Positions 1,899 to 43,473 of a stretch of DNA of 64,000 nt are shown piece by piece (positions within the stretch are counted from its first letter, which is position 1; each line of letters opens with the position of its first letter). A program made the position numbers and the translations under genes. A model generated the notes under the pieces. That model did not search any database. It was not told where the DNA came from and saw only the letters and a program-made list of their open reading frames with translations. The DNA is from Escherichia phage UGJNEcP3: sequence record OV876907. One strand, 5' to 3'.

Positions 1899-3709
1899 TG
1901 AAACAAGACTTAAAAGTAGGTTCCGCTGTTGATGACGGGTCCGGTGATTACCTGCGTGCAGGTGGTCTTAAAATTAATAACAACTTCAATGAGCTTTATT
2001 ACCAATTAGGCGACGGCAATAACCCACATGCCGCAGGCGCTTGGAAACAACATTCTACTGAAGACGGTGCTTTGTTGAATGCCGTAATGGGCCATAGCTA
2101 TACCCTTAATACCCAGGGTGGGCGTATTAACGTCCAGCTTCCTAAAGGCTCTCCTGAAGAATATAACTTTGTTATCCGTGTACGTGATGTGTATTCTTCA
2201 TGGCAAGCTAACCCAGTAACCTTAATCCCTGCCACAGGTGATACCATTAAGGGTTCAGCTACTCAAGTTGAAATTGCTCGCAACTTCTCTGACCTTGAAT
2301 TGGTTTATTGTGCGCCTGGTCGTTGGGAATATGTTGAAAATAAGCAAGTAAACCGTATTCCAAATAACGACCTTGCTACCGTAGCAACCAAGCAGTTTAT
2401 TGCTACTGAAGGTCAAACAGATTTTCTAGATGTTTTCCCTGGCCTTTCTTACAACGTAGCAAGTTTAAGCGTTTCGCAACGTGGTAACAATTTGTTCTAC
2501 GGTGTTGATGATATTTTTGATGCTGCTACCGCAGAGTTTGGTTCTCCGGGTGCTCAACCAGGTGAATTGGTTGCCTTGAATGGTAAGGACATCCGTTTAA
2601 AATATCCATGCGAAGCAGGTGATACCGTTATTATCAAATCGTATAATGACGGACTTGCTCAATGGCGCAGTTCTTATAACCGCCGTGATATAACAATCAA
2701 AAGTTCAGAATTGACTAAAGACGTTTCTGTTCCTGGTTCTTCTTTCGTAGGTGATTTGAGTACTTCACATGTTATATCAGCGGCTGATTTGAATATTTCC
2801 GTTAACAGTCCTATCAACCCAAATGCTTGCCAAGTCATGCTTAATAGCACATTACTTCATCAAGCTGGTACTGCTGGCCTTCCTTCGTTTTATTGTGAAG
2901 GTGCCGACGGACGTACTGCTACCGAGTGTTTTAATGCAGGCGGGCAATGGACTCAATCTAAATCAGACTATATTTTTAATTTGACCCCTGAAGATAAGAT
3001 TGAATCCATCGAATTTGGACGTGACTTTGAACATGGTGATATTCTTACGGTAATTTGGTACAATAACGATATCGGCACTACCATGGAAATTGATGAGATT
3101 TTGGATTATACCAATAACATCTATATTTCTAAAGGCCCTTCTATTGATATATCAGGCCAGGTTCGTATCACTGATGTAGATAATCCTTTTGCACCTAACG
3201 TTGAACCTGTCGCCCCATCTAATATTACAATAGATACGGCATCGACATTTTTTGATTTAATTTACCCTATAGGAACCATCTATGAGAACACGGTGAATCC
3301 TAATAACCCTAAAACTTATATGGGCTTTGGTTCATGGAAGCGTTTATCTGATGTGTTCTTGGTAGGTTGGTCTCCTGACGCTAGTTCTTTGTTTAATGCA
3401 AATAATAACGACCTGGATTCAGCGGGTGTTCCACAATCAACTGCAGGTGGGACTGGTGGTGCTCATGTGGCTAATTTGAAATATGAGAATATCCCAGAAC
3501 TTAATACAGATGATAAAGTCCTTATTGCTGATAATGATGGCCCTATTTTTGTAGGTGGATGTTTAGTTGACCCTGATTCGCAAGGACCGGCTTATACAAA
3601 ATATCGTGAAGATAAAGCCAGTATTAATAAGGCTCAAGGGACCACTCCCATCCCGGTTAATACTCTACCACCATACTTAACTGTTCATCGCTGGATGAGG
3701 ATTGCATAA
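1898..3709 (+). CDS. 10: baseplate wedge subunit and tail pin gp10
   Basis: ORF track; ATG overlaps gp9 stop (TAATG); size and position as T4 gene 10. Confidence 0.85.
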   Translation: MKQDLKVGSAVDDGSGDYLRAGGLKINNNFNELYYQLGDGNNPHAAGAWKQHSTEDGALLNAVMGHSYTLNTQGGRINVQLPKGSPEEYNFVIRVRDVYSSWQANPVTLIPATGDTIKGSATQVEIARNFSDLELVYCAPGRWEYVENKQVNRIPNNDLATVATKQFIATEGQTDFLDVFPGLSYNVASLSVSQRGNNLFYGVDDIFDAATAEFGSPGAQPGELVALNGKDIRLKYPCEAGDTVIIKSYNDGLAQWRSSYNRRDITIKSSELTKDVSVPGSSFVGDLSTSHVISAADLNISVNSPINPNACQVMLNSTLLHQAGTAGLPSFYCEGADGRTATECFNAGGQWTQSKSDYIFNLTPEDKIESIEFGRDFEHGDILTVIWYNNDIGTTMEIDEILDYTNNIYISKGPSIDISGQVRITDVDNPFAPNVEPVAPSNITIDTASTFFDLIYPIGTIYENTVNPNNPKTYMGFGSWKRLSDVFLVGWSPDASSLFNANNNDLDSAGVPQSTAGGTGGAHVANLKYENIPELNTDDKVLIADNDGPIFVGGCLVDPDSQGPAYTKYREDKASINKAQGTTPIPVNTLPPYLTVHRWMRIA

Positions 3710-4374
3710 TGACTTTAACTGAAATGAAAAGCGGGTTAAAATCCCGCTTAGCTGACTATTTGGAATTATCTTACACCAGTGACAAGCCCACTGCTGTTGC
3801 TGACCAACGACCTATCGGTGGCCCTTCTGCAAACCAAACCCAGAAGGGTGTTTATTTTCCTACAGTCCAAAGTGCAATAGATGATATTGCATTTAGAACA
3901 GAGCTTCCTGTGAACTCTGTTATTATTACCACAGAAAACAGAGCACCTGGATTTATCCAACAATCTGATAAAATTACATTTACCGGTTCTATTTCTTCAG
4001 GCGGCGAACTTGGCGACCCGGTTATTATTAAAGTGTTTGGACTTCCTGTAGAGGTCTTAGTTGGTGATTCATCTGTATTGGTTGCATCTAAAGTAAATGA
4101 TGTATTTTTAGACGCCATTGCTAATAGCTATATTTTAGCCGAAACGGCTATTGACGCCTTAGACCAATCTACCTTGAATATTAAATACAATGACTATCAG
4201 AATCATATTTTTTCACCATATAAACAATCGGGTTGTACAATTTCCCATACTATAGTCCAGCAGCCAAGGGCCGGATATGGTAAGTGGGAATACTTAGGTA
4301 ACTCTACCCAATCGTTAGCAGGTGGTACAGTTAACGGCACGATTCCTTTATATTACTATAAGAGATTATATTAA
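3709..4374 (+). CDS. 11: baseplate wedge subunit and tail pin gp11
   Basis: ORF track; start overlaps gp10 stop; size and position as T4 gene 11. Confidence 0.85.
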   Translation: MTLTEMKSGLKSRLADYLELSYTSDKPTAVADQRPIGGPSANQTQKGVYFPTVQSAIDDIAFRTELPVNSVIITTENRAPGFIQQSDKITFTGSISSGGELGDPVIIKVFGLPVEVLVGDSSVLVASKVNDVFLDAIANSYILAETAIDALDQSTLNIKYNDYQNHIFSPYKQSGCTISHTIVQQPRAGYGKWEYLGNSTQSLAGGTVNGTIPLYYYKRLY

Positions 4375-5900
4375 TGTCAACAAACACACTAAAACACATT
4401 AGTGATAAATCGGAATTCAAATCATTCGACCCTACTGGGTCGAATTTCCCGCCTGATATTACTAATGTTCAAGAAGCATTGGCAACTATTTCATTAATCG
4501 GCGTCACAGGTAATGTTCCCTCAGCCACAGAAACGTCCCAAGGCATTATTCGTCTTGCCACTACACAAGAAGTAATGGATGGATTGGATGCTTATAGTGC
4601 AGTGACACCGGCAACTTTAAAAGCTCGTTTAGATATTCCTACTCAGGCAACAGAAACTTATGTAGGTATTACCCGTTATGCTACTAACGCTGAAGCCATA
4701 GCAGGCACAGAGCCCCAGGCTGCAATCGTAGCAACTTCTTTGAAAGCGGTAATGGATTATACATTTGAGAACCGTTTATCAACAGAGAACGCCACAGGCG
4801 TTATCAAGATTTCAACTACACCTGCCGCATTAGCTGGTACCGATGATACCACAGCAATGACCCCACTTAAAGTATCTCAGGCAATTGGTGCAGCGACGGC
4901 AGCGTTACCGGTTTATTCTACGGCAACGACTACAAATGAAGGTTTAGTTCGTTTAGCGACCAATGCCGAGGTTGGTAATGGAAGTCTTTCGGTAGGTATT
5001 GCTATTTCTCCAGCCGGATTAGCCACATTAACTTCCACCGAAGCCAGAAGTGGTATTATTAAACTCGCTGGTTGGGATATGGTATCTAATGGTACCGACC
5101 ATACCGCCGCAGTTACACCGGCTTCTTTGTTAGCTCGTACAGGTAATACTGGACGTATTGGGTTGGTTCGTTTATCTACTACGGTAGGTCAAGGTGATGG
5201 TAATACAGCACTGGCTTATAATGCTAACGTTATTTCTACTTCAGGTGGTGAAATATGGGGTACTTTAAACGTTAATGGAGCATTACGTCGTAATGGTGTT
5301 GATGTTGTTACCCATGACCAATTATCAGATAGCGTTCCTGTAGGTACTATTTGCATGTGGGGCGGCAATGAAGGTAATATACCTGGTAAATGGCGTGCTT
5401 GTGTAGGTGGGACTTACACTGGTGGTGCATATTTAAATGCTGTTGGTGGGCGTTGGGGATGGTGGGGTGCTATTCCAGATTTCCGTGGATTATATCCTCG
5501 TGGCGCTAACATGGTTGGTGGATATTCTGAAGGTGAAGTTAACCCACATATTGCTGGTAACCGAGGACAAGACGGTAAAGGTAAGGCCCGTTTAGGCAAT
5601 GGTGTTGGTTCGTTCCCACAATCTTCCGTTCAAGCCCAAGCATTACGTTATCATAAACATGCTGGTGGTTTTGGTGAACATGATAACTATGGCGCTTTTG
5701 GTAACACCGCTAACTCCGGATATGTTGGTACTCGTAAAGGCCTTGACTGGGATAACCGTAGTTATTATACCAACGAAGGTTTTGAGACCACCGATCCTTG
5801 GAACCGTGATGGACATACCACATTGAATAGTGAAGGTCTTATTGCCAACGAAACACGTCCATGGACAATGTCCGTTCTTTTTATTATTAAAGTAGAATAA
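4374..5900 (+). CDS. 12: short tail fiber gp12
   Basis: ORF track; Thr/Ala/Gly-rich repetitive fibre-like N-terminal half and Gly/Trp-rich C-terminal head; position after gene 11. Confidence 0.85.
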   Translation: MSTNTLKHISDKSEFKSFDPTGSNFPPDITNVQEALATISLIGVTGNVPSATETSQGIIRLATTQEVMDGLDAYSAVTPATLKARLDIPTQATETYVGITRYATNAEAIAGTEPQAAIVATSLKAVMDYTFENRLSTENATGVIKISTTPAALAGTDDTTAMTPLKVSQAIGAATAALPVYSTATTTNEGLVRLATNAEVGNGSLSVGIAISPAGLATLTSTEARSGIIKLAGWDMVSNGTDHTAAVTPASLLARTGNTGRIGLVRLSTTVGQGDGNTALAYNANVISTSGGEIWGTLNVNGALRRNGVDVVTHDQLSDSVPVGTICMWGGNEGNIPGKWRACVGGTYTGGAYLNAVGGRWGWWGAIPDFRGLYPRGANMVGGYSEGEVNPHIAGNRGQDGKGKARLGNGVGSFPQSSVQAQALRYHKHAGGFGEHDNYGAFGNTANSGYVGTRKGLDWDNRSYYTNEGFETTDPWNRDGHTTLNSEGLIANETRPWTMSVLFIIKVE

Positions 5901-5909
5901 GGGTAAAAA

Positions 5910-7499
5910 ATGATTAACAAATTGGAACTTAGTGAGTTACCATTTGTTGACGGCGTACCTGATGCTCCTCAAAAGCGTATCCAATGGATACGCGAGGGTG
6001 ATTGTATGTCTGCAGCAAAAACAAAATACGGCAATGAAGGTAATTTGAACGCTGCTGCTTTAGGAGTTCAGAAAAACGTTGAAGCTCTTGATGCGAATGA
6101 TTTGAAAACCGCAGATAAAGTTAACGAACTGGTAGAAAACGTTAATAATATCAATGATGCCTTAGAAATGGCTACGGATATTTCCGCCATCCAACAAATT
6201 GAGAAAAACCGTGTTGATATCGTAGAGCTTAAGAGAGTAGAAGGCGAAACCACTGTCGGGCTAAACAATTTAACCATAAATTTAGACCACCTAAAAGAAG
6301 ACGTTGGTTACCATGACCCTTTACAAGACGGCCCGTATTTAACTGTACGTGAAAATATTGTTCTTCTTAAAACCGAAATAGGTCATTATGAAAACCAGGA
6401 TATAAATGGTAATCCGTTGCCTCCTGGTGAAACCAGTGAAGCCACCGGTATGAAACGACGCATCATTGATAATACCACTCAATTGGTCGACCATCGTCTT
6501 CGCATTGATACCCTTGAAAGGAATTATGAAGATTCTGACGTCGGGCAACTAGGTATTAAATTAAATGAAATTCGTGCTGAATTAGGTCCTCATTCCGATA
6601 CGGTAGGTAAACAACAGGCTTATACCCGAATTTCTGTATTAGAAACGGCTGCAATTAATTTCAATACATCTATCGACGAAATTAAGGCTGATATTGATTT
6701 CTCCGGTATGCCTATAAAGGACCGAGTAACTACTTTAGAAAGCAAAACTCTTACCCTAGAAAATTCGGTCACCGTTGATTTAAAACCTCGTGTAACATCA
6801 ATTGAAACCCAAATAGGTTCTGAATCAACTCCTACTTCTATTAATGGACGTTTAAGCGGTCTTCGTACTGATGTAAATGACCTTAAAACCATAGTGGGTG
6901 TTAGTTCAAGTGATGGCTTACGTTTCCAAGTTACTGATATCAACCGCCGTTTAGGTAGTGAAGTATCTCCGGCAGCTGGGACCATTAATAAGCGTTTAAA
7001 TGACGTTATTATCCAAGCAAACCAATCTACTTCATCTATCCAGGATATTCAAGTAGAAATTGGAAATAACCAATCCGGTATTAAGGGTACTTTACTTAAA
7101 CTCACCAATAAGGTTGACGGGACAAACCCTAACGGTACTACTGTAGAAGAACGTGGTCTTATTAACGCGGTTACTTCTTTAGAAACCCAGATGTTAGGTA
7201 AGTTGAATGATGCCCCTTCCGATGGTAAGCTTTATGCTCGTCGTAATGCTACGTGGACCGAAGTTCCTAACGTTTCTACTGAAATAGGGACCGTTAAAGC
7301 TGATTTAGTTGTTACCGATGGTAATGTAGCAGCTTTAACTTCTAGAGTTACTACAGCAGAAGATAAAATCACTGCATTAGAAACTGAACTTGCTAAACGT
7401 CCGCCGGTGGCTCCAGTTGCTGATGGACTTCCGTATGTTCTGGTTGATAATGCGTGGGTGCTATTGTCAGATTTTGTGACTTTAAACCCGGGACCATAA
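5910..7499 (+). CDS. wac: fibritin (whisker/neck fibre) Wac
   Basis: ORF track; long coiled-coil-like repetitive sequence; position between 12 and 13; followed by terminator hairpin. Confidence 0.85.
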   Translation: MINKLELSELPFVDGVPDAPQKRIQWIREGDCMSAAKTKYGNEGNLNAAALGVQKNVEALDANDLKTADKVNELVENVNNINDALEMATDISAIQQIEKNRVDIVELKRVEGETTVGLNNLTINLDHLKEDVGYHDPLQDGPYLTVRENIVLLKTEIGHYENQDINGNPLPPGETSEATGMKRRIIDNTTQLVDHRLRIDTLERNYEDSDVGQLGIKLNEIRAELGPHSDTVGKQQAYTRISVLETAAINFNTSIDEIKADIDFSGMPIKDRVTTLESKTLTLENSVTVDLKPRVTSIETQIGSESTPTSINGRLSGLRTDVNDLKTIVGVSSSDGLRFQVTDINRRLGSEVSPAAGTINKRLNDVIIQANQSTSSIQDIQVEIGNNQSGIKGTLLKLTNKVDGTNPNGTTVEERGLINAVTSLETQMLGKLNDAPSDGKLYARRNATWTEVPNVSTEIGTVKADLVVTDGNVAALTSRVTTAEDKITALETELAKRPPVAPVADGLPYVLVDNAWVLLSDFVTLNPGP

Positions 7500-7500
7500 T

Positions 7501-7522
7501 AAAAGGGCTTCGGCCCTTTTTT
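7501..7522 (+). terminator. intrinsic terminator after wac (UUCG tetraloop)
   Basis: AAAA-GGGC-TTCG-GCCC-TTTTTT. Confidence 0.7.
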
Positions 7523-7524
7523 GC

Positions 7525-7532
7525 TATAAATA
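7525..7532 (+). promoter_or_regulatory. T4-type late promoter TATAAATA (gene 13)
   Basis: Exact TATAAATA about 20 nt upstream of gp13 ATG, just after the wac terminator. Confidence 0.6.
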
Positions 7533-7553
7533 CGGTTATTAGAGGAATAAACC

Positions 7554-8489
7554 ATGGCAAGTGAATCATATAACCCTAAGCAACTCAAGGACGCAATCCT
7601 GCGCCGCCTGGGTGCACCGATTACGAATATTGAAGTAACTACAGACCAAGTATACGATTGCATCCAGCGCGCCCTGGAGCTCTACGGTGAGTATCATTAT
7701 AACGGCTATAACAAAGGTTATCAGGCTTTTTATATAGGCCATGATGACGAAGAAAAATTCCGTAACGGCGTATTTGACCTTAAAGGCCGTAATATATTTG
7801 CGGTAACACAAATTTTGAGAACTAATGTAGGTTCTTTAACATCTATGGATGGGCAAGCGACTTATCCGTGGTTTACTGATTTTGTATTAGGCTTGGCCGG
7901 TATTAATGGTGGTCTTGGAACTTCTTGTAACAGCTTTGGACCTAATGCCTTTGGTGCTGACCTTGGTTATTTTACACAATTAATGCAATATCGTTCTATG
8001 ATGCAGGACCTTTTGGTTCCATTGCCTGATTATTGGTATAACGATGCCACCGAACAATTGAAAGTAATGGGTAACTTTGTTAAAGGCGATTTTATTGTAA
8101 TTGAAGTTTATACTCGCTCTTTTAATGGGGTTGATTCTATGGTAGGAAATACAGCAGGGTATGGTTATGCTTCAGGCGGTTGTGATGAAAATGAATGGAG
8201 CCCTGGAGCTATTTGGGATAACCCTGCACGTCGTATTTCGGGTATGAGAGCAGGTGAAGACCTTGGTTTGCAAGATGGTTCGTATAATAACCGTTGGGTC
8301 AAAGATTACGCCACGGCATTGGTTAAAGAAGTCAATGGTAATATTTTGGCCAAACACCAAGGCATGCAACTTGCAGGTGGAACCACTGTAGATGGTATTC
8401 GATTGATTGAAGAAGCTCGTTTAGAAAAAGAACGTCTTCGCGAAGAATTAGATTTACTCGACCCACCAACACCTATTTTAATTGGATAA
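7554..8489 (+). CDS. 13: neck protein gp13
   Basis: ORF track; TATAAATA late promoter about 20 nt upstream, GAGG RBS; position as T4 gene 13. Confidence 0.85.
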
Positions 8490-8491
8490 TT

Positions 8492-9265
8492 ATGGCCACT
8501 TTCGATTCGAGTTTATTTGCCAAGCTGGAAAATAACACCGGCTATGCTAACACGAACGAAACTGAAATAATGAACCCGTTCGTCAACTTCTACAAGCATG
8601 AGAATACCCAAACATTGGCTGATGCTTTAGTTGCTGAGTCTATTCAAATGCGTGGTATTGAGCTTTATTATATACCACGTGAATATGTTAAACCTGACCA
8701 GCTATTTGGCGAAGACCTTCAGAACAAATTTACTAAAGCCTGGAAATTTGCAGGTTATTTGGATTCCTTTGAAGGTTATTCCGGCGACAATACTTATTTC
8801 AGTAAGTTCGGTATGATGGTTAATGATGAAGTAACAATCACAATTAACCCTAACCTTTTTAAACATCAATGCAATGGCACTGAACCTGTTTCAGGTGATT
8901 TGATTTATTTCCCAATGGACAACAGCCTATTCGAAATTAACTGGGTACAACCTTACGACCCATTCTATCAAGTAGGAGCTAACGTCCAGCGGCGCATCAC
9001 CGCTACCAAGTTCATTTACAATGGTGAAGAACTTCGCCCTGAATTACAGAGAAATGAAGGTATTAATATCCCTGAGTTTAGTGAGCTTGATTTAATGCCT
9101 GTTAAGAATATCGACGGATTGGCTGATATCTCTGACATTCAATACGAAGAGGTCAATGAGATTAATGCTGAAGCGGCTGAATTCGTACATCCTTATGTTG
9201 TAATTAATGGACGAGGAGAGGATGCTCCTCCTACAGCATTTGATGATGCTTTTTTAGATGATTAA
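8492..9265 (+). CDS. 14: neck protein gp14
   Basis: ORF track; immediately follows gene 13; size as T4 gene 14. Confidence 0.85.
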
Positions 9266-36590: not shown

Positions 36591-36618
36591 AAAAAAAGGA
36601 GAGCGTACGCTCTCCTTT
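36591..36618. terminator. bidirectional terminator between gene 54 and the end of the alt-side minus-strand unit
   Basis: AAAAAAA-GGAGAGCG-TA-CGCTCTCC-TTT; 9-bp stem. Confidence 0.7.
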
Positions 36619-36624
36619 AGGGGT

Positions 36625-36915
36625 TTATTTACGGAACGAAATGAAACCTGCTGTGGTCATTAGTGGTTGCTTTTTAACAAACACCGTGACCGAAATAGGA
36701 GCTTCAGATTCGAGTTGTCCTGTCACTACACCGTTAAAAATGTTTTCGGTTTGTTCTGGATAAGAAAAATTCTCAACAGGTCGGATATCAAACTGTTTGT
36801 CTTCACCAAAAACTCGACGTAATTCATTACCTACGGCACTGTCAAACTCTTCGGAAGCAGGGATAACGTTTTCAACTACCAGTTCTTGACCATTAAAACG
36901 GAATGCAGATTTCAT
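36625..36915 (-). CDS. hypothetical protein downstream of the alt array
   Basis: ORF track; GAGGAG RBS; own GTTTACA-N17-TACTAT promoter whose -35 overlaps the Alt-A stop codon. Confidence 0.6.
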   Translation of the reverse strand: MKSAFRFNGQELVVENVIPASEEFDSAVGNELRRVFGEDKQFDIRPVENFSYPEQTENIFNGVVTGQLESEAPISVTVFVKKQPLMTTAGFISFRK

Positions 36916-36943
36916 AATGTTCTCCTCATGTTTGTGTAAGGTA

Positions 36944-36973
36944 ATAGTACCACATCCTTGTGGTGTTGTAAAC
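36944..36973 (-). promoter_or_regulatory. early-type promoter GTTTACA-N17-TACTAT
   Basis: Upstream of the 36625-36915 gene; -35 overlaps the Alt-A stop codon. Confidence 0.5.
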
Positions 36974-39096
36974 TACATTTTGAATTTATTTGATAAAGAA
37001 GAGATATCCAAAGACGCGGCAAGGATTTCCATAGCTTCATTGCTTTCAGAAATGGATTCACTAATCAAGAACTGACTGAATCCATCCATCAGGCGAACTT
37101 CGCCAGTTTCCATCAAATGGTCACCATCGTAAACAGATTCGCTGAGCTCTGAAGGAGGTGTTACGGTAGCTTCCATAAGGTATTTGTGAGATACTCTATC
37201 ATTCATGGCAAAAGACGCTACTTTATCAACCTTCAACAATAATCCACGCGGAAGGATAATTTCTGCTTCTTCAGCATATTCTGTAAGGTCGCCAGGAGCG
37301 ATAACTTTAACTGCTTCAGCACCTCGAATAACCATACCAATTTCAGCAATTCTATCCGCAGGGCCTTCAGGTGCAATTGGATTACCAAACTCGTCTTCTT
37401 CCCATTCCACCTCTTCGTCATCGACTTCACCCACATCAGATGAACTACCACTAGCCAATTTAAACAACTCATCGGCTGAGGATAAAGAACCTTCATCACC
37501 AACAAAAACTGCTTGGTTGTCGAGGGCCATATAATTTTTACCAAATTCGCCAAAGATGTTAGGCTTTAATGAGGCCGACACAAAGTTCTTAAAGTAAAAT
37601 GTTTTGTTATCGATATTATGACGCAGAATTTTGTATGGTAAATCCTGACCACGATACAAAATAGTACCCTTAGGAAGTTTAATACCCTTAGTAAATGCTG
37701 AGTCTAAATCCTTAATCAATTTAATAGCCGTTGTATTGTTTTCGGATTCAGGTTTACCTAAAAGGAATAAGTTCATAGGAGCATATTCAGCTGCGCAATA
37801 TTCAATAATAGCATTGCTTTCGTCTTTGGTTAAGTCCTTAGGTTTAATGAGCTCACCTGAATAAGCATATGCATCACTAATAGAATCGTTAATTAGTTTA
37901 TAAACGGCTTCCATAGCGAAAGCAATTCGAGAGGCCTTTTCTGAAGGGGAGCCTTTAAAACGAGCGCTCAAGTTATTAACAATTTTCTTAATAATATCCA
38001 GACTATTGGTGGTATTGATTTGCGAAAGGCCACTTAAAAGTCTATCGACTTCTGTATTAAAAAATGCCATATTATTAGAGTAAATTTCAAACCCTTGTTT
38101 ATCTCTATTAGCATAATTTAGTTTAAATTTACTATCAGTCATTAAAGCGTGTGTGAGAGCAATAGTGTATCTAAAGTTGGCAAGGTCCTCGCTCTTAGAT
38201 TTAAACTGAGAAGCCTGGCGCATTTTGGTAATAGCACCTTTTTTAAAGTTCTGACTAATCTGTTCAATACCTTCATTCTCAGGGCCTTCAGCCGTGTGAA
38301 CCGGTACAGAAGCTTCAAACTCGTTATAAACCTGCAATTCTTTAGGGGACAAAGTTTCAGGCTCAGCAGTAGAATACTGCGCGGCCGCTGCCATACGACG
38401 CGAAATCTTAGTACGAGTAATGACAGCCTTATCAGTACGTTTCTCTTCAACTTGTGCAATAGATGCCGCTACGGCTTCTACTTTACTTACGGCCTGGCCG
38501 GTTTTCTTAGAAACATACACTTCGCCAACTTTAGACTCGACTTTAGTATAAAGATTGGCATCAATTTCAGGCATACCCTTGATATCTTCAATATTAGCAC
38601 CACGACGTACTAAAAGAACGTAGGTATGTTTTCCGCTGAATTGGAACATGTGGTCAACAACTTTAAACTTACCACCGGTACGGGCCATAGCCAAACGAGC
38701 TAATACGCGCTGAACGGTAGGGCCTTTACCTTTCATTTTCTTAGTAGGGAAACGGAATAAAACCGCGTCCATTTTAAGTTTGTTTATTTGTTCATATATG
38801 GTATCGAAAATGGTGTTCAGTGTACCGAGTGGATCGGTACCCAAACCACCCTTGAGTTCTGCCGGAGCGCCTTTAGCAGATAAACTCATTAAGATAACAT
38901 GGACGTACTTATCGCCATTTTTAACCATCTTAATAGCGTCGCCTTCAGACGCATAAGATACCATACGCGCTACTAAATTGTCATTACCAGGAGCATGTAC
39001 CGCAAAAATCTGCGGTACGCCTGAGCCAGGTTTAAGATTTGTTACCGGATAGTTTTTAGCGGAATCGCTATCAAAAACTTCGTTTAAATTTTCCAT
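36973..39096 (-). CDS. alt: Alt-like ADP-ribosyltransferase, paralogue A (third in transcription order)
   Basis: N-terminus MENLNEVFDSD...; ART motifs YRGQ / VSASL / EIILPRG in the C-terminal third; central segment unlike the other two copies. Confidence 0.8.
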   Translation of the reverse strand: MENLNEVFDSDSAKNYPVTNLKPGSGVPQIFAVHAPGNDNLVARMVSYASEGDAIKMVKNGDKYVHVILMSLSAKGAPAELKGGLGTDPLGTLNTIFDTIYEQINKLKMDAVLFRFPTKKMKGKGPTVQRVLARLAMARTGGKFKVVDHMFQFSGKHTYVLLVRRGANIEDIKGMPEIDANLYTKVESKVGEVYVSKKTGQAVSKVEAVAASIAQVEEKRTDKAVITRTKISRRMAAAAQYSTAEPETLSPKELQVYNEFEASVPVHTAEGPENEGIEQISQNFKKGAITKMRQASQFKSKSEDLANFRYTIALTHALMTDSKFKLNYANRDKQGFEIYSNNMAFFNTEVDRLLSGLSQINTTNSLDIIKKIVNNLSARFKGSPSEKASRIAFAMEAVYKLINDSISDAYAYSGELIKPKDLTKDESNAIIEYCAAEYAPMNLFLLGKPESENNTTAIKLIKDLDSAFTKGIKLPKGTILYRGQDLPYKILRHNIDNKTFYFKNFVSASLKPNIFGEFGKNYMALDNQAVFVGDEGSLSSADELFKLASGSSSDVGEVDDEEVEWEEDEFGNPIAPEGPADRIAEIGMVIRGAEAVKVIAPGDLTEYAEEAEIILPRGLLLKVDKVASFAMNDRVSHKYLMEATVTPPSELSESVYDGDHLMETGEVRLMDGFSQFLISESISESNEAMEILAASLDISSLSNKFKM

Positions 39097-39099
39097 TAT

Positions 39100-41148
39100 T
39101 TACCCTTGGGTGAATTTTTCTGGGGTTTCGTCAAAATTAATACATGAAGCTAAAATAGGCATTATATCCACCTTGGTCGATTTGACGAATGAATCAAAAG
39201 ACACACGGTTGTCGGTCTCTGTTTCTACGCCTTGGTAAACAACCAATTCGCCGGTTTCCATCAATGCATCACCATCATAGATAACCGCATTTTCTGCTAG
39301 TTGGTCTGTGGTCTGGATATCAGCTTCCAATAATTTGGTGTTGTAGTTTCCTTTATATGAGGCATCTGTAATTTTAGTAATCTTAACAGTAGTTCCACGT
39401 GGAAGAATAACCTCTTGTTCTGTTGGAGAACCTGACAATTCACCGGGCACAATTACGTTAATAGAGTCTGCACCGGAAATTTTCCAACCGATGTTCATCA
39501 TTGTATTTTCGGAACTCGTCAGCATACTTGGAAGAACAATTTCATTATTGCCTTGGAAAGATGTCCCAGCGCGATAGTCCTGATGAACTGCGGCCATTGC
39601 GACGTTTGATACCCAGCCGCCAAAGATAATCGGCTTAAGGGACGTTGATACATAGTTCCTGAAATAAAACAATTTTGAGTGTTTGATTTTATCAAAAGTG
39701 TTAACATTTAAATATTGACCACGCCAAAGTGTAATATCAGGTGGCAATTTATGGCCAATTTCAAATGCCGCATCCATATCATTAATTACTTCAATTACAC
39801 GATAACTATCAATAAATTCTGCATCCTCTTCATAATAATTACCCAACAAATAATTATTAACATCGGTATAATATTGGCCACAATAAGAAGAAATAGCCTC
39901 ACGCTGCCCATACTCAAATCGATTATCGCTATAACTGGCTGTAAAATGCATAACACTTTCTGACGCTTCATTAGCAAAGTCGGTAACAGCAGCACTTATA
40001 CGTTGAGCATACTCTTGTTCCCAAAGCTCTGCTGCATATTCTGCCGCATCCATATTAGGAGGAGCCTCATTCATTTTTCTTTCGATAAATGCAGCTTTGC
40101 GAAGGTTAAGAACCTCTGCACATGATTCGGCAAAAATCTGCATCTGCTTCATACTGCCGACAGGAGCACGTTTAAGTTCACGATGCATACGGTTAAAAAT
40201 TGGGTCAGAGTCTTCGACTCGAATTTCTTCTTTCCAAACACCGTTTGCTCGCATAGCCATATCTGCCGCGCGCATACGCTCCATAGTATTCGTTTCAGAA
40301 GGCTGAATAAAAATTTCCAGTTCTTCATAATCATCGATAAGTTCTGCTGTTGCTGGGGCACTAAATTTTGATGCCTCTGCATCAATCTCATTCCAACCTT
40401 CCGGAACTTCATCTCGAGGAGAATACTGGGCTGCGGCTACAGCACGCCTAGAAATCTTGGTAGTAGTAATAACGGCCTTATCCGTACGTTTTTCTTCGAC
40501 TGCCGCTATACTAGCAGATAGTGCTTCTATTTTGGTTACCGATTGGCCTGTTTTCTTGGATACATAAACCTCACCAACTTTAGACTCAACCTTAGTGTAA
40601 AGGTCTGCATCAATTTCAGGCATACCTTTTATGTCCTCAATATTAGCTTGTTTACGGACCAGTAAAACGTATGTATGTTTGCCTGTAAATTGATACATAT
40701 CATCGACAACTTTAAACTTGCCGCCAGTACGAGCCATCGCCAAACGTGCCAATACACGTTGAACAGTAGGACCCTTACCTTTCATTTTCTTGGTAGGGAA
40801 CCGGAAAAGAACTGCATCCATTTTAAGTTTGTTTACTTGTTCGTATACAGTATCAAAAATGGTATTCAGCGTACCAAGTGGGTCAGAACCTAACCCACCT
40901 TTCAACTCGGCTGGGCTACCCTTAGCAGACAAACTCATCAAAATAACATGAACATATTTGTCACCCGGCTTAACCATTTTAATAGCGTCTCCTTGAGACG
41001 CATAAGATACCATACGAGCAACCAGATTATCATTACCTGGTGCTTGGATAGAGAAAATCTGTGGAATACCGGGACCCGGTTTAAGATTTGTTACTGGATA
41101 GTTTTTAGCGGAATCACTATCAAAAACCTCATTTAAATTTTCCATCAT
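39100..41148 (-). CDS. alt: Alt-like ADP-ribosyltransferase, paralogue B
   Basis: N-terminal about 230 aa near-identical to paralogue A; motifs WRGQ / VSTSL / EVILPRG; start may be the second ATG (41145). Confidence 0.8.
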   Translation of the reverse strand: MMENLNEVFDSDSAKNYPVTNLKPGPGIPQIFSIQAPGNDNLVARMVSYASQGDAIKMVKPGDKYVHVILMSLSAKGSPAELKGGLGSDPLGTLNTIFDTVYEQVNKLKMDAVLFRFPTKKMKGKGPTVQRVLARLAMARTGGKFKVVDDMYQFTGKHTYVLLVRKQANIEDIKGMPEIDADLYTKVESKVGEVYVSKKTGQSVTKIEALSASIAAVEEKRTDKAVITTTKISRRAVAAAQYSPRDEVPEGWNEIDAEASKFSAPATAELIDDYEELEIFIQPSETNTMERMRAADMAMRANGVWKEEIRVEDSDPIFNRMHRELKRAPVGSMKQMQIFAESCAEVLNLRKAAFIERKMNEAPPNMDAAEYAAELWEQEYAQRISAAVTDFANEASESVMHFTASYSDNRFEYGQREAISSYCGQYYTDVNNYLLGNYYEEDAEFIDSYRVIEVINDMDAAFEIGHKLPPDITLWRGQYLNVNTFDKIKHSKLFYFRNYVSTSLKPIIFGGWVSNVAMAAVHQDYRAGTSFQGNNEIVLPSMLTSSENTMMNIGWKISGADSINVIVPGELSGSPTEQEVILPRGTTVKITKITDASYKGNYNTKLLEADIQTTDQLAENAVIYDGDALMETGELVVYQGVETETDNRVSFDSFVKSTKVDIMPILASCINFDETPEKFTQG

Positions 41149-43236
41149 TTACCCTTGGATGAATTTTTCTGGGATGCCATAGAGGTCTATGCATGAAGCC
41201 AAAAGAGACAGTACATCAACCCGTGTAGATTTAACAAATGAATCAAAAGATACAGGGCTTTCGGAAGTATCGAAATCATCTTGATATACGACCAACTCAC
41301 CGGTTTCCATTAGTACGTCACCATCATATACCACAGATTCTTGAAGCTCATCTGATGTCATAACTTCAGCTTGAATAAATTTATTGTTAGACACCGTCCC
41401 GGAACCAGTATTGGCTGATGCATCCACGATTTTATCTATTTTTACAAGTAGCCCGCGTGGTAAAATTATTTCCTTTTCGTTGGCATGCATGCTTAATTGG
41501 CCAGGATAAATCACGTTAACCTTATGAGCGCCACTAATAGCCCAGCCAACATCAACACGGATTTGATCCGGCGCATACATATGTGTACGCACTTGACTAT
41601 CAGAGATGGTAACGCCTTCGTCATTATTATCAATGTTTAATTCTTTTCGAACATCATCGGAAGCAAGACCAATAGCCGCATTCTCTTTAAAGCCACCAAA
41701 AATGATTGGAGCTAATGAGGTTGAAACATAGTTTCTAAAATAGAATACCTTATTTTTAACTAATGCTTCGTAGATAGGCGCGCGCAAAGATTGTGCTCTA
41801 TAAACCATTATTCCTTCAGGTAAACGGTCTCCATTTTTAAAGGCAGAATCCATTCCATCAATAGCACGTTTAACTTCGCTTTCGTCCAAAACTTCATAAA
41901 AGCCTGGTTTATAACGACCAAGAAGGACATTGTTAATATCAATATAAGCTGAAGAGGCGTATTCTCTGATAGCTCGTTTTTCTGCAAGTGTATATTGTTT
42001 AGGGTCTCGAGATGTTGTTATATTAAGAATTTCTCTAGTTGATTCTATAGCGTATGTATACATTATCTTAGACAAGAATGAAGACTTACGTTGTTTCCAT
42101 ACTATTTCACTGTTTTCATTCAATATCTCTTTTTCCAAATGGAAATTGTCTTTTCTATAATCTTCAAACCAATCACTTTTAATAGATTCTGCGATTTCAT
42201 TAGCAACTTCAACAAAGGCAGCTAAAGCTTTAACTGACGTGGTTTTTTCATTTTTAATTTTTTTGACAAATGTTTCTAAAGAAGAGTTAATTTTATCACC
42301 GTAAGAAACTTCATCCGCAAATTTAAATGAATCATCCATAGTATTATAAATTTTAAAATCAATAGCCGTAGCCAACTTATCCTTAGCTGTTTCAGATGAT
42401 AACGATAGTTCAACTTCGGCCGCTTGTGGAATTAATTCTGCCGTAGCAGGCGCACTGAACTCACTAGCAGTTTGCTCGTATTTCTGAAACAATTCACCTT
42501 CATTACGATCTGATTCTAATGACTGGCTTGCTGCAATAGCACGTCGCGAAATCTTAGTCTTGGTTATAACCATTTTATCGGTGCGACGTTCTTCAACCTT
42601 AGCAATACTGCCGGCAATAGCAGTTTCTTTAGTAACCTGCAGGCCTTCTTTTTTAGAAATATAAACTTCACCAACATCAGAATCTACCTTAGTGTATAAT
42701 TCGGAATTAATTCCTGGCATACCCTTAATATCTTCAATGTTAGCTTGTTTACGAACTACTAGGATGTAAGTATGTTTACCGGTAAATTGGTACATAGCCG
42801 GAACTACTTTAAAACGTCCACCTGTTTTCTGTGCTACCAAACGTTGGATAATCCGTTGAACAATAGGCCCTTGACCTTTCATTTTCTTAGTAGGGAAACG
42901 GAACATCACTGCATCCATACGAAGCTTTTTAACTTGGTCATAAACCACATCAAAAATAGTATTAATCGCATCTACGGGAGTAGGGCCAAGGCCACCCTTA
43001 AGTTCGGCTGGAGTACCTTTAGCTGAAAGGCTCATAAGGATAACGTGGGCATATTTATCGCCTAATTTAACTTGTTTAATAGCATCACCTTCAGAAGCGT
43101 AGGATACCATACGCGCTACTAATTGGGATTCTGCATCGCCAATCTTCCAAATCTGAGGTACTTTAAGTTTTGGGTTCAAGTTTACTGTAGGCAGAGTGCC
43201 TTCGGACTCAAACACTTCATTTAATTGTTCGGTCAT
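41149..43236 (-). CDS. alt: Alt-like ADP-ribosyltransferase, paralogue C (first in transcription order)
   Basis: N-terminus MTEQLNEVFESE...; motifs YRAQ / VSTSL / EIILPRG; C-terminal tail shared with paralogue B; AAGAGGAA RBS. Confidence 0.8.
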   Translation of the reverse strand: MTEQLNEVFESEGTLPTVNLNPKLKVPQIWKIGDAESQLVARMVSYASEGDAIKQVKLGDKYAHVILMSLSAKGTPAELKGGLGPTPVDAINTIFDVVYDQVKKLRMDAVMFRFPTKKMKGQGPIVQRIIQRLVAQKTGGRFKVVPAMYQFTGKHTYILVVRKQANIEDIKGMPGINSELYTKVDSDVGEVYISKKEGLQVTKETAIAGSIAKVEERRTDKMVITKTKISRRAIAASQSLESDRNEGELFQKYEQTASEFSAPATAELIPQAAEVELSLSSETAKDKLATAIDFKIYNTMDDSFKFADEVSYGDKINSSLETFVKKIKNEKTTSVKALAAFVEVANEIAESIKSDWFEDYRKDNFHLEKEILNENSEIVWKQRKSSFLSKIMYTYAIESTREILNITTSRDPKQYTLAEKRAIREYASSAYIDINNVLLGRYKPGFYEVLDESEVKRAIDGMDSAFKNGDRLPEGIMVYRAQSLRAPIYEALVKNKVFYFRNYVSTSLAPIIFGGFKENAAIGLASDDVRKELNIDNNDEGVTISDSQVRTHMYAPDQIRVDVGWAISGAHKVNVIYPGQLSMHANEKEIILPRGLLVKIDKIVDASANTGSGTVSNNKFIQAEVMTSDELQESVVYDGDVLMETGELVVYQDDFDTSESPVSFDSFVKSTRVDVLSLLASCIDLYGIPEKFIQG

Positions 43237-43258
43237 AATAATTCCTCTTTAATAACCT

Positions 43259-43266
43259 TATTTATG
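43259..43266 (-). promoter_or_regulatory. near-consensus late promoter (CATAAATA) upstream of the first alt paralogue
   Basis: 7 of 8 match to TATAAATA, about 23 nt upstream of the Alt-C ATG, just after a terminator hairpin. Confidence 0.35.
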
Positions 43267-43272
43267 CCAGAA

Positions 43273-43288
43273 AAGGCCCGAAGGCCTT
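43273..43288 (-). terminator. UUCG hairpin between the small post-ligase ORF and the first alt gene
   Basis: Minus strand AAGGCC-TTCG-GGCCTT then TTTTCT. Confidence 0.45.
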
Positions 43289-43290
43289 TA

Positions 43291-43473
43291 TTAAAGTACT
43301 AACAACGTACGGTACACTTCAAATTTAGGACCCTTTTCATAGCGGTCGAAATTATCTTTGAAATCGGCGAACGCGATTTCATTTTCAAATTCAAGGACAA
43401 TTTGGGACACTGCGGTGGAGACATCGCCACCTTCTTTATATCCAATAACCACGGTTTCTAAATAAACTTTCAT
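43291..43473 (-). CDS. small hypothetical protein between gene 30 and the alt array
   Basis: ATG 1 nt after gene 30 stop (TAAtATG); 60 aa; track start 43572 would overlap gene 30; terminator hairpin follows. Confidence 0.45.
   Translation of the reverse strand: MKVYLETVVIGYKEGGDVSTAVSQIVLEFENEIAFADFKDNFDRYEKGPKFEVYRTLLVL

Follow-up and report, generated by a model that had tools for sequence, protein, structure and literature searches.

Joints of a three-gene alt array in a Dhakavirus as probable translational-coupling sites within a repeated recombination framework

Introduction

Alt is the first phage enzyme that acts in a T4-type infection: it enters the cell with the DNA and modifies RNA polymerase of the host, as well as other proteins, by ADP-ribosylation. 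In the phage, gpAlt is a scaffolding-core protein of about 40 copies, from which gp21 removes a small N-terminal peptide (PMC9958956), and paralogues and duplications of alt in T4-type phages were noted by Nolan et al. 2006 (PMC1524935). Here, we analysed three long alt open reading frames (ORFs) that lie head to tail on the minus strand, at positions 36973-43236 of a window of 64,000 nucleotides (nt) from Escherichia phage UGJNEcP3 (record OV876907), and in particular the two joints between them. Region 36900-43300 of this window, to which all coordinates refer unless another genome is named, matches Escherichia phage UGJNEcP4 at 100% identity; this phage is a Dhakavirus, one of the JS98-like T-even phages. 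The array resembles the tandem alt paralogues of other T4-type phages (T4 alt with alt.-1/alt.-2, RB32 alt with alt.-2, JS98 alta/altb and 44RR ORF187c) in locus, protein family and head-to-tail order. It differs from them in that it holds three intact copies instead of two, and in that the middle gene, B, joins a Dhakavirus N-terminal domain (N-domain) to a Gaprivervirus-type cassette.

The closest parallel described in T4-type phages is PeSL shuffling, in which regulatory repeats of ~100 bp flank a dispensable gene and recombination deletes or inserts the gene while the expression signals stay intact (Arbiol et al. 2010, PMC2839356). The alt arrays likewise carry a conserved repeat of ~100 bp around a dispensable gene. 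A PeSL, however, is an intergenic early promoter (sigma-70-like) with a stem-loop terminator, whereas the alt joint is almost wholly coding, carries translation signals and shows no promoter, terminator or stem-loop, and is therefore not a PeSL. Tandem changes in copy number through short direct repeats are also known from the segmental amplification of T4, in which headful packaging limits genome size (Srikant, Guegler and Laub 2022, PMC9391042). That study dealt with chance microhomologies of 6-10 bp under laboratory selection, whereas the present case concerns repeats of 96 nt (94% identical) and ~700 nt (79%) in paralogues and comparative evidence. Lastly, polymorphic effector and toxin loci such as the MuF-fused phage head effectors (PMC9503650, PMC5512222) also combine a conserved N-terminal part with fast-evolving, exchanged Alt/VIP2 ADP-ribosyltransferase (ART) domains. 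Unlike these, the alt array has no MuF domain, immunity genes or orphan toxin modules, all its cassettes belong to one ART family, and the packaging role of its N-domain is presumed.

Neither tandem alt paralogues nor homology-driven shuffling is new to T4-type phages, and unequal recombination in tandem families is textbook knowledge, so that the general surprise of the present case is modest: it is a well-documented instance and not a new mechanism. What the present case adds is a set of mapped hybrid genes, a view of the joint as a conserved element of coupling and recombination, and a framework/cassette organisation whose cassettes cross genera. In the searchable literature we found no description of the alt junction as a recombination or coupling element, of hybrid alt genes or of the framework/cassette organisation.

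The two joints are nearly identical and carry the start signals of the next gene

The array runs in the order C, B, A and consists of copy C (41149..43236, 695 amino acids (aa)), copy B (39100..41145, 681 aa when counted from the second of two possible ATG codons) and copy A (36973..39096, 707 aa), all on the minus strand. When the B|A joint (39029-39124) was compared with the C|B joint (41078-41173) at an offset of 2049 nt, 90 of 96 bases (94%) were identical, the mismatches being at 39046, 39067, 39079, 39082, 39097 and 39110. This junction block is the top 96-nt window of the whole homologous stretch between A and B. The next non-overlapping window reaches 83 matches, and the homology outside the block is 76.7% identical (498/649). 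A permutation that preserved codon phase gave P = 0.0005 for the excess of identity in the block, and third codon positions agreed at 18 of 22 sites inside it versus 106 of 217 outside. The identity of the joints is thus above what protein similarity requires, as was implied when the locus was read from its sequence only. The plus-strand motif TTTAAATTTTCCAT.ATTTACCCTTGG.TGAATTTTTC pointed out in that sequence-only reading occurs exactly twice, at 39083-39120 and 41132-41169 (a 42-nt version gave two window matches versus none in 100 shuffles), and the stop (TAA), AAGGG and ATG that it named were found at both junctions. Its account of the limits fared less well. The repeated unit is real, but instead of the last ~45 nt of the upstream copy plus the next start it takes in only the last 25 nt of that copy, stop included, and 68 nt of the downstream 5′ end. 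The first 700 nt of A and B, which it had called near-identical, in fact share 79% of their DNA and 89% of their protein sequence, without any exact run longer than 21 nt.

On the coding strand, both joints read ...P-E-K-F-(I/T)-Q-G-TAA-AT(G/A)-ATG-GAA-AAT-TTA-AA(T/C)-GA(G/A)..., where the upstream gene ends in CCA GAA AAA TTC AYC CAA GGG TAA and the downstream protein starts with MENLNE. Block C|B (41078..41173, minus strand) comprises the last 25 nt of C (PEKFIQG plus TAA), the spacer ATG and, from its start ATG on, the first 68 nt of B; block B|A (39029..39124, minus strand) comprises the last 25 nt of B (PEKFTQG plus TAA), the spacer ATA and, again from the start ATG on, the first 68 nt of A. 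Apart from these 3 nt, the whole block is coding. The Shine-Dalgarno sequence AAGGG of B (41152..41156, minus strand) lies within the last two sense codons of C (CAA GGG), 6 nt before the ATG at 41145, and that of A (39103..39107, minus strand) lies within the last two sense codons of B, also 6 nt before the ATG.

All three ORFs share one reading frame, with gaps that consist of TAA and one sense codon, and the same holds in RB32; this shared frame is probably a consequence of the conserved 3-nt spacer. At the C|B joint (41143-41148) the spacer is ATG in UGJNEcP4, JS98, EcWhh-1 and IME281, which creates tandem in-frame starts (ATG ATG), while at the B|A joint and in most other phages it is ATA. 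The additional ATG at 41146-41148 would lengthen B by one methionine, and the annotation of the B start varies accordingly: the deposited record uses the second ATG, at 41145, and JS98 and IME08 the first. We favour the start at 41145 because it leaves 6 nt between AAGGG and ATG.

Folding of 100 nt around each joint revealed no RNA structure at either of them (z=0.66 for C|B, z=0.18 for B|A). The sole folded region in the same test was that upstream of C (z=-2.3), owing to a hairpin located there. Inside the array there was no exact T4 late promoter TATAAATA, sigma-70-like and terminator-like sites were in no excess over shuffled sequence, and neither a promoter nor a terminator was found at the joints. 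Upstream of C, a late-promoter-like CATAAATA (43259..43266, minus strand), with one mismatch to TATAAATA, lies 22 nt before the start codon and is preceded by the GC-rich hairpin AAAGGCCTTCGGGCCTTT (43272-43289, minus strand). RB32 carries an identical hairpin at the head of its array, followed by a perfect TATAAATA at the same place, and positions 43259-43289 can be read as a putative conserved terminator-plus-late-promoter unit that heads the array. At the opposite end, after alt.-3, a strong terminator-like hairpin with a 10-bp stem and a T-run (TTTTTGTT tail; 36595..36618, minus strand) is likely to be the end of the alt transcription unit. Such an arrangement would give one late transcript, from which B and A would be translated by coupling or re-initiation at the joints. 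Judged by these signals, the joint is most likely a translational-coupling site in one operon.

The joint is conserved while the number of alt genes varies

Among the first 12 Dhakavirus arrays examined, the same junction block was present at 17 of 18 internal junctions, the exception being that of WG01 after its different first gene. The two joints of MX01 agree at every position over 57 nt, a sign of homogenisation within one genome. Outside the genus, the alt | alt.-2 joint of Tequatrovirus RB32 reads ...K-F-V-Q-G-TAA-ATC-ATG-GAA, and its last gene ends in ...KKFKM, like copy A. The core CAAGG(G/A)TAAATNATGGAA is kept even there, while near-identity over 96 nt is specific to the Dhakavirus array. 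Since RB32 shares both the joint and the tails, the two-gene architecture and the 18-nt core appear to be ancient and presumably functional.

Dhakavirus genomes hold two or three alt genes, and most of them hold two; it is the middle gene, B, that two-copy relatives of UGJNEcP4 lack. C-B-A arrays were found in UGJNEcP4, KIT01, QL01, C6, fDHCT2, MX01, AnYang and LHE83, and a second three-gene type, D-C-A, in WG01, PSD9 and LQ5; E33, PSD2002 and ABTNLS3 have three copies by match count alone. The B cassette occurs at 95% identity or more in 8 distinct phages and the A cassette in 43 records. In two comparisons of three-copy with two-copy arrays, the lengths were 6264 versus 4215 bp and 6261 versus 4212 bp, a difference of exactly 2049 bp each time. 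Two apparently larger arrays were rejected: the four copies counted in LHE83 come from an array that spans the record ends, and the five counted in 04086 from a WG01-type three-gene array in a frameshift-ridden assembly. The 04086 record has 148 annotated features in 177 kb and its third alt gene is broken by frameshifts, which suggests assembly errors. In vB_EcoM_005, the last alt gene (874-2898) encodes 674 aa instead of 707, due to an internal deletion within the A cassette.

The first gene of the WG01-type arrays, D (631 aa; WG01 7291-9186, PSD9 and LQ5 1012-2907), ends in ...LANLFK* and is linked to the next gene by a junction of another kind, TAG GATAGATT ATG. Among the sampled genes, D is closest to alta of Gaprivervirus SP18 (6408-8282), with 70% aa identity in the ART domain. 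The presence of D with its own junction indicates that the array can also grow promoter-proximally without the conserved joint.

Hybrid genes locate crossovers between the B and A copies

The last genes of arrays lacking B were typed at the sites that consistently distinguish the N-domains of A and B (160 such sites in the first alignment and 147 in later ones). WG01_3 was B-type at 67 consecutive informative sites and A-type at all later ones, a pattern with a chance probability of 1.5e-43. Its switch lies between nt 354 and 372 of the gene (copy A 38725..38743, copy B 40774-40792, minus strand) and coincides with a 17-nt exact match between A and B that starts at 38726. In IME281_2 the switch falls at gene nt 264-270 (copy A 38827..38833, copy B 40876-40882, minus strand), and in PSD9_3 and 04086_3 at gene nt ~126-151 (copy A 38946..38971, copy B 40995-41020, minus strand), so that the PSD9 breakpoint is shared with an independently sequenced record. 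B+A hybrids built in silico from QL01 matched the natural genes better than intact A did, both for WG01_3 (98.8 versus 95.5%) and for IME281_2 (98.0 versus 95.7%). Short B tracts in the A genes MX01_3 and AnYang_3, and A tracts in the B gene AnYang_2, indicate gene conversion as well.

LQ5 is of another kind, since its C-type tail is joined directly to a pure A 5′ end. The tail of its C2 gene is C-type up to ...GACATC and then continues with ACC (Thr), a codon otherwise found only in B tails (UGJNEcP4, KIT01). Such a tail would be expected if a crossover had occurred inside the 14-nt CCCAGAAAAATTCA that the junction block contains, at a candidate interval of 39110..39125 (minus strand; C|B equivalent 41159-41174) that is supported by one site in one genome.

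The last gene of the JS98 type was also considered as a simple B x A hybrid and was dropped as evidence, as the same N-domain allele is found on the unrelated cassettes of Bp7_2 and VR5_2. From 5′ to 3′, this widespread N-domain passes from B-like through a patchy middle to A-like.

Constant framework segments surround exchangeable cassettes

The first 235 codons of each gene form an N-domain (A, 38392..39096; B, 40441..41145; C, 42532..43236; all aa 1-235, minus strand). The B N-domain, which ends at a conserved RTDKAVITTTKISRR motif, is 79% identical to that of A in nt and 89% in aa, and 69% identical in aa to that of C; the A N-domain would be its partner in unequal crossovers. The C N-domain shares 67-70% aa with those of A and B and about 70% in nt, and is 90-97% identical in nt to orthologues that carry a different cassette. 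In B, the N-domain is followed by an effector cassette of linker and ART domain (aa ~240-635; 39241..40428, minus strand). This cassette is 75-97% identical in nt to altb of Gaprivervirus SP18, versus 35-60% nt (40% aa) for the N-domain and about 50% for the tail end. In copy B, the N-domain is A-like, the cassette of a foreign type and the tail end, with its joint, C-like, a composition that would be expected for the middle gene of an unequal-crossover triplication whose cassette was later replaced.

The same organisation was apparent in the first gene, which exists as two alleles, C1 (the one in UGJNEcP4) and C2. They are 43-74% identical over about aa 245-620 (nt ~750 to ~1860) and 90-100% identical in the flanks, that is, in the N-domain and the last ~76 codons, and all four combinations of C1 or C2 with two or three copies exist. 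The ART domain of C2 matches that of the T4-type alt of RB32 at 95% aa and 85-95% nt, while the N-domains of the two share 46% aa. In the phages sampled, at least eight catalytic cassettes were found on Dhakavirus N-domains, with N-domains that are 90-100% identical carrying cassettes that are 33-50% identical, some of which are shared with other genera. These comparisons, together with the copy-number differences and the hybrid genes, support the earlier proposal that the repeated blocks allow unequal recombination and cassette shuffling. Bp7 alt' (5001-7052) and two VR5 genes (2943-4997 and 5001-7049) combine standard Dhakavirus N-domains with further cassettes, which share 33-49% aa with any of the references. 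The tails of VR5_2 and Bp7_2 differ (...PEKFR* and ...QYKFVQG*).

Searches with tblastn found the N-domain in 1201 phage records, T4, RB32 and RB69 included. As to its function, it had no Pfam match even at E<=10, no NCBIfam match and no sequence or profile match in the PDB. In a large protein collection (query 40426-41145) there were only three relatives of the N-domain, all in the precomputed family PF26846, which had no match in the local Pfam. An AlphaFold model, built on an alignment of 3 sequences, had a low pLDDT of 57. It is a speculative possibility that the domain has a GNAT-like fold and its own function. The N-terminal residues show an L/I-x-E motif (MENLNE and MTEQLNE here, MELITE in RB32), which would suit cleavage by the prohead protease, with loss of a small N-terminal peptide.

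Interpretation and alternatives

We consider it very probable that the joints of the three-gene alt array are coupling sites as well as part of a repeated framework at which recombination deletes, converts and swaps copies and cassettes. Each gene would be built from a framework N-domain of ~235 codons, an exchangeable linker/ART cassette and a framework C-terminal tail that runs into the joint, where the final CAA GGG of the upstream gene would serve as the Shine-Dalgarno sequence of the next, followed by TAA, the 3-nt spacer and ATG. As N-domain, tail and joint recur as direct repeats, neighbouring copies could exchange sequence with one another, and so could co-infecting phages, by misaligned homologous recombination and by gene conversion. 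A misaligned exchange would delete a whole 2049-bp unit and leave an in-frame B/A hybrid gene, and recombination or conversion would homogenise the joints. Exchange during co-infection would swap cassettes, cross-genus ones included, between conserved flanks and spare the translation signals and the presumed packaging domain. T4-type phages have very high recombination rates, and T4 amplifies and deletes DNA via microhomologies of 6-10 bp (PMC9391042); by this standard, blocks of 96 nt (94% identical) and 700 nt (79%), which contain exact runs of 14-21 nt, are ample substrates. The joint anatomy, the excess identity, the copy-number polymorphism, the mapped hybrids and the cassette alleles are observed in the sequences. 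Coupling, transcription from one late promoter, the packaging of all three Alt proteins and whether B was lost or gained in a given event are presumed, and the selective reason would be a diversified set of injected effectors.

Several points weigh against this reading. None of the arrays among the best 60 N-domain hits has more than three genuine copies, which is what the reciprocal expansion product would be; headful packaging may select against such expansions. Most of the mapped crossovers fall in the 79%-identical N-domain region and not in the junction block. For LQ5, an ancestral C-A arrangement with a homoplasious change could explain the junction equally well, and the JS98-type N-domain may be a third allele and not a hybrid. 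For UGJNEcP4 itself, ongoing instability would be an extrapolation from its relatives. Besides, selection on the translation-initiation region alone could account for the excess of synonymous identity at the joints.

This last point leads to the alternative that the junction identity is only a footprint of purifying selection on the Shine-Dalgarno sequence, stop and start, unstructured initiation region, protein termini and protease site, the repeats having no role in recombination. The conservation of the core in RB32, the almost invariant joint across orthologous Dhakavirus junctions and the unstructured RNA, as expected for an initiation region, all speak for it. Yet such selection accounts for the 18-nt core and not for 96 nt at 94% with their identical third positions, and the three hybrid breakpoints, one-unit length differences, conversion tracts and block-bounded cassette replacements show recombination that uses the framework; we regard this explanation as unlikely. 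A stronger case, although we still hold it to be doubtful, can be made for the reverse direction of change. The two-copy array (RB32, JS98) would then be ancestral, the three-copy array would go back to one event, either an unequal crossover or the insertion of an altb cassette like that of Gaprivervirus, and the B-like 5′ tracts would be later conversion patches received from three-copy phages instead of deletion scars. In keeping with this, two copies with these tails and this joint are what the outgroup RB32 has, altb of SP18 is the nearest match to the B cassette, and the A-like N-domain and C-like tail end of B are those expected for the middle gene of a triplication. Moreover, WG01, PSD9 and LQ5 are close relatives with different tract lengths, and the JS98-type N-domain also occurs on other cassettes. 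Nevertheless, deletion accounts equally well for single switches this sharp and for the match of WG01_3 to B (99-100% identity), and misaligned B x A pairing over the same homology would still be needed, so that the history would change and the mechanism would be the same.

The in-frame TAA-NNN-ATG, conserved in Dhakavirus and RB32, could also be taken as a sign of occasional stop-codon readthrough into Alt-Alt fusion proteins. This is very improbable: TAA is an efficient stop, no structure follows it, every downstream gene is provided with an ATG and, at good spacing, a Shine-Dalgarno sequence, the in-frame state is automatic from the conserved 3-nt spacer, and signs of suppression were neither looked for nor seen. 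Collapsed or chimeric repeats in short-read assemblies, which might produce both the repeat and its variants, deserve hardly any credence. Poor records with frameshifted genes, such as 04086, do exist among the relatives, but assemblers easily separate copies that, for most of their length, share only 55-79% identity, the three-copy array is found in 8 independently sequenced phages, and the PSD9-type breakpoint recurs in an independent record.

A broader reading, for which we see about even chances, is that the alt locus is an effector-cassette system in which a lineage-specific N-domain (for loading into the scaffolding core), the tail and the coupling joint act as portable recombination arms. 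If so, phages would gain, lose and swap injected ART 'warheads' across genus boundaries, among them T4-type alt, Gaprivervirus altb and at least six more. The combination of host-targeting enzymes would then differ from phage to phage, which would make the locus the phage equivalent of polymorphic toxin loci. That two or three Alt variants are present, taken from a pool of at least eight cassettes on one constant framework, and that copies are lost and exchanged at mapped sites, suggests that the injected effector set is a fast-evolving, host-adaptive trait. The arrays provide material for studying the targets of different Alt paralogues and the part of Alt that directs head packaging, and for loading engineered enzymes into T4-type capsids via the conserved framework and joint. 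They also carry a warning for annotation: the genes named alt in related phages are mosaics, whose N-terminal and catalytic halves differ in history.

Protein family and genomic context

The three proteins matched PF03496 (ADP-ribosyltransferase exoenzyme domain) with E-values above the curated cut-off (A, 1.2e-17; B, 2.6e-20; C, 1.7e-28) and phrog_802 end to end, with E down to 2e-256. The catalytic R, S-x-S and E-x-E motifs are kept in all of them. In the order A/B/C, the R motif reads LYRGQ/LWRGQ/VYRAQ, the S-x-S motif FVSASL/YVSTSL/YVSTSL (SAS in A, STS in B and C) and the E-x-E motif EAEIILPRG/EQEVILPRG/EKEIILPRG; in C these lie at aa 478-482, 503-508 and 587-595. By these features, A, B and C are classed as T4 Alt-type ADP-ribosyltransferases (Alt/VIP2, R-S-E clade) with predicted activity, and in the deposited record each of them carries the annotation of an Alt-like RNA polymerase ADP-ribosyltransferase. 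Copy A has a distinct C-terminal tail, ...SNKFKM*. A repeat search returned the array as direct repeats of three copies, with spacings of 2049 and 2097 nt (families D1 and D2).

No small ORFs were found between the alt copies, which are complete genes followed by alt.-3, without cognate immunity genes or orphan toxin modules. The order of the locus is gp48 / gp54 (the tail-tube gene) / alt.-3 / three alt genes / alt.1 homologue / DNA ligase (gp30), and the position of alt between gp30 ligase/alt.1 and alt.-3/gp54 is conserved in the annotation of UGJNEcP4, JS98, KIT01 and RB32. The downstream neighbour, the alt.-3 homologue (36625..36915, minus strand, 96 aa), is conserved, matches phrog_1739 (E=2.6e-42) and is annotated as alt.-3 in JS98. 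The alt.1-like ORF is named alt.1 in JS98 and is unnamed in the UGJNEcP4 record.

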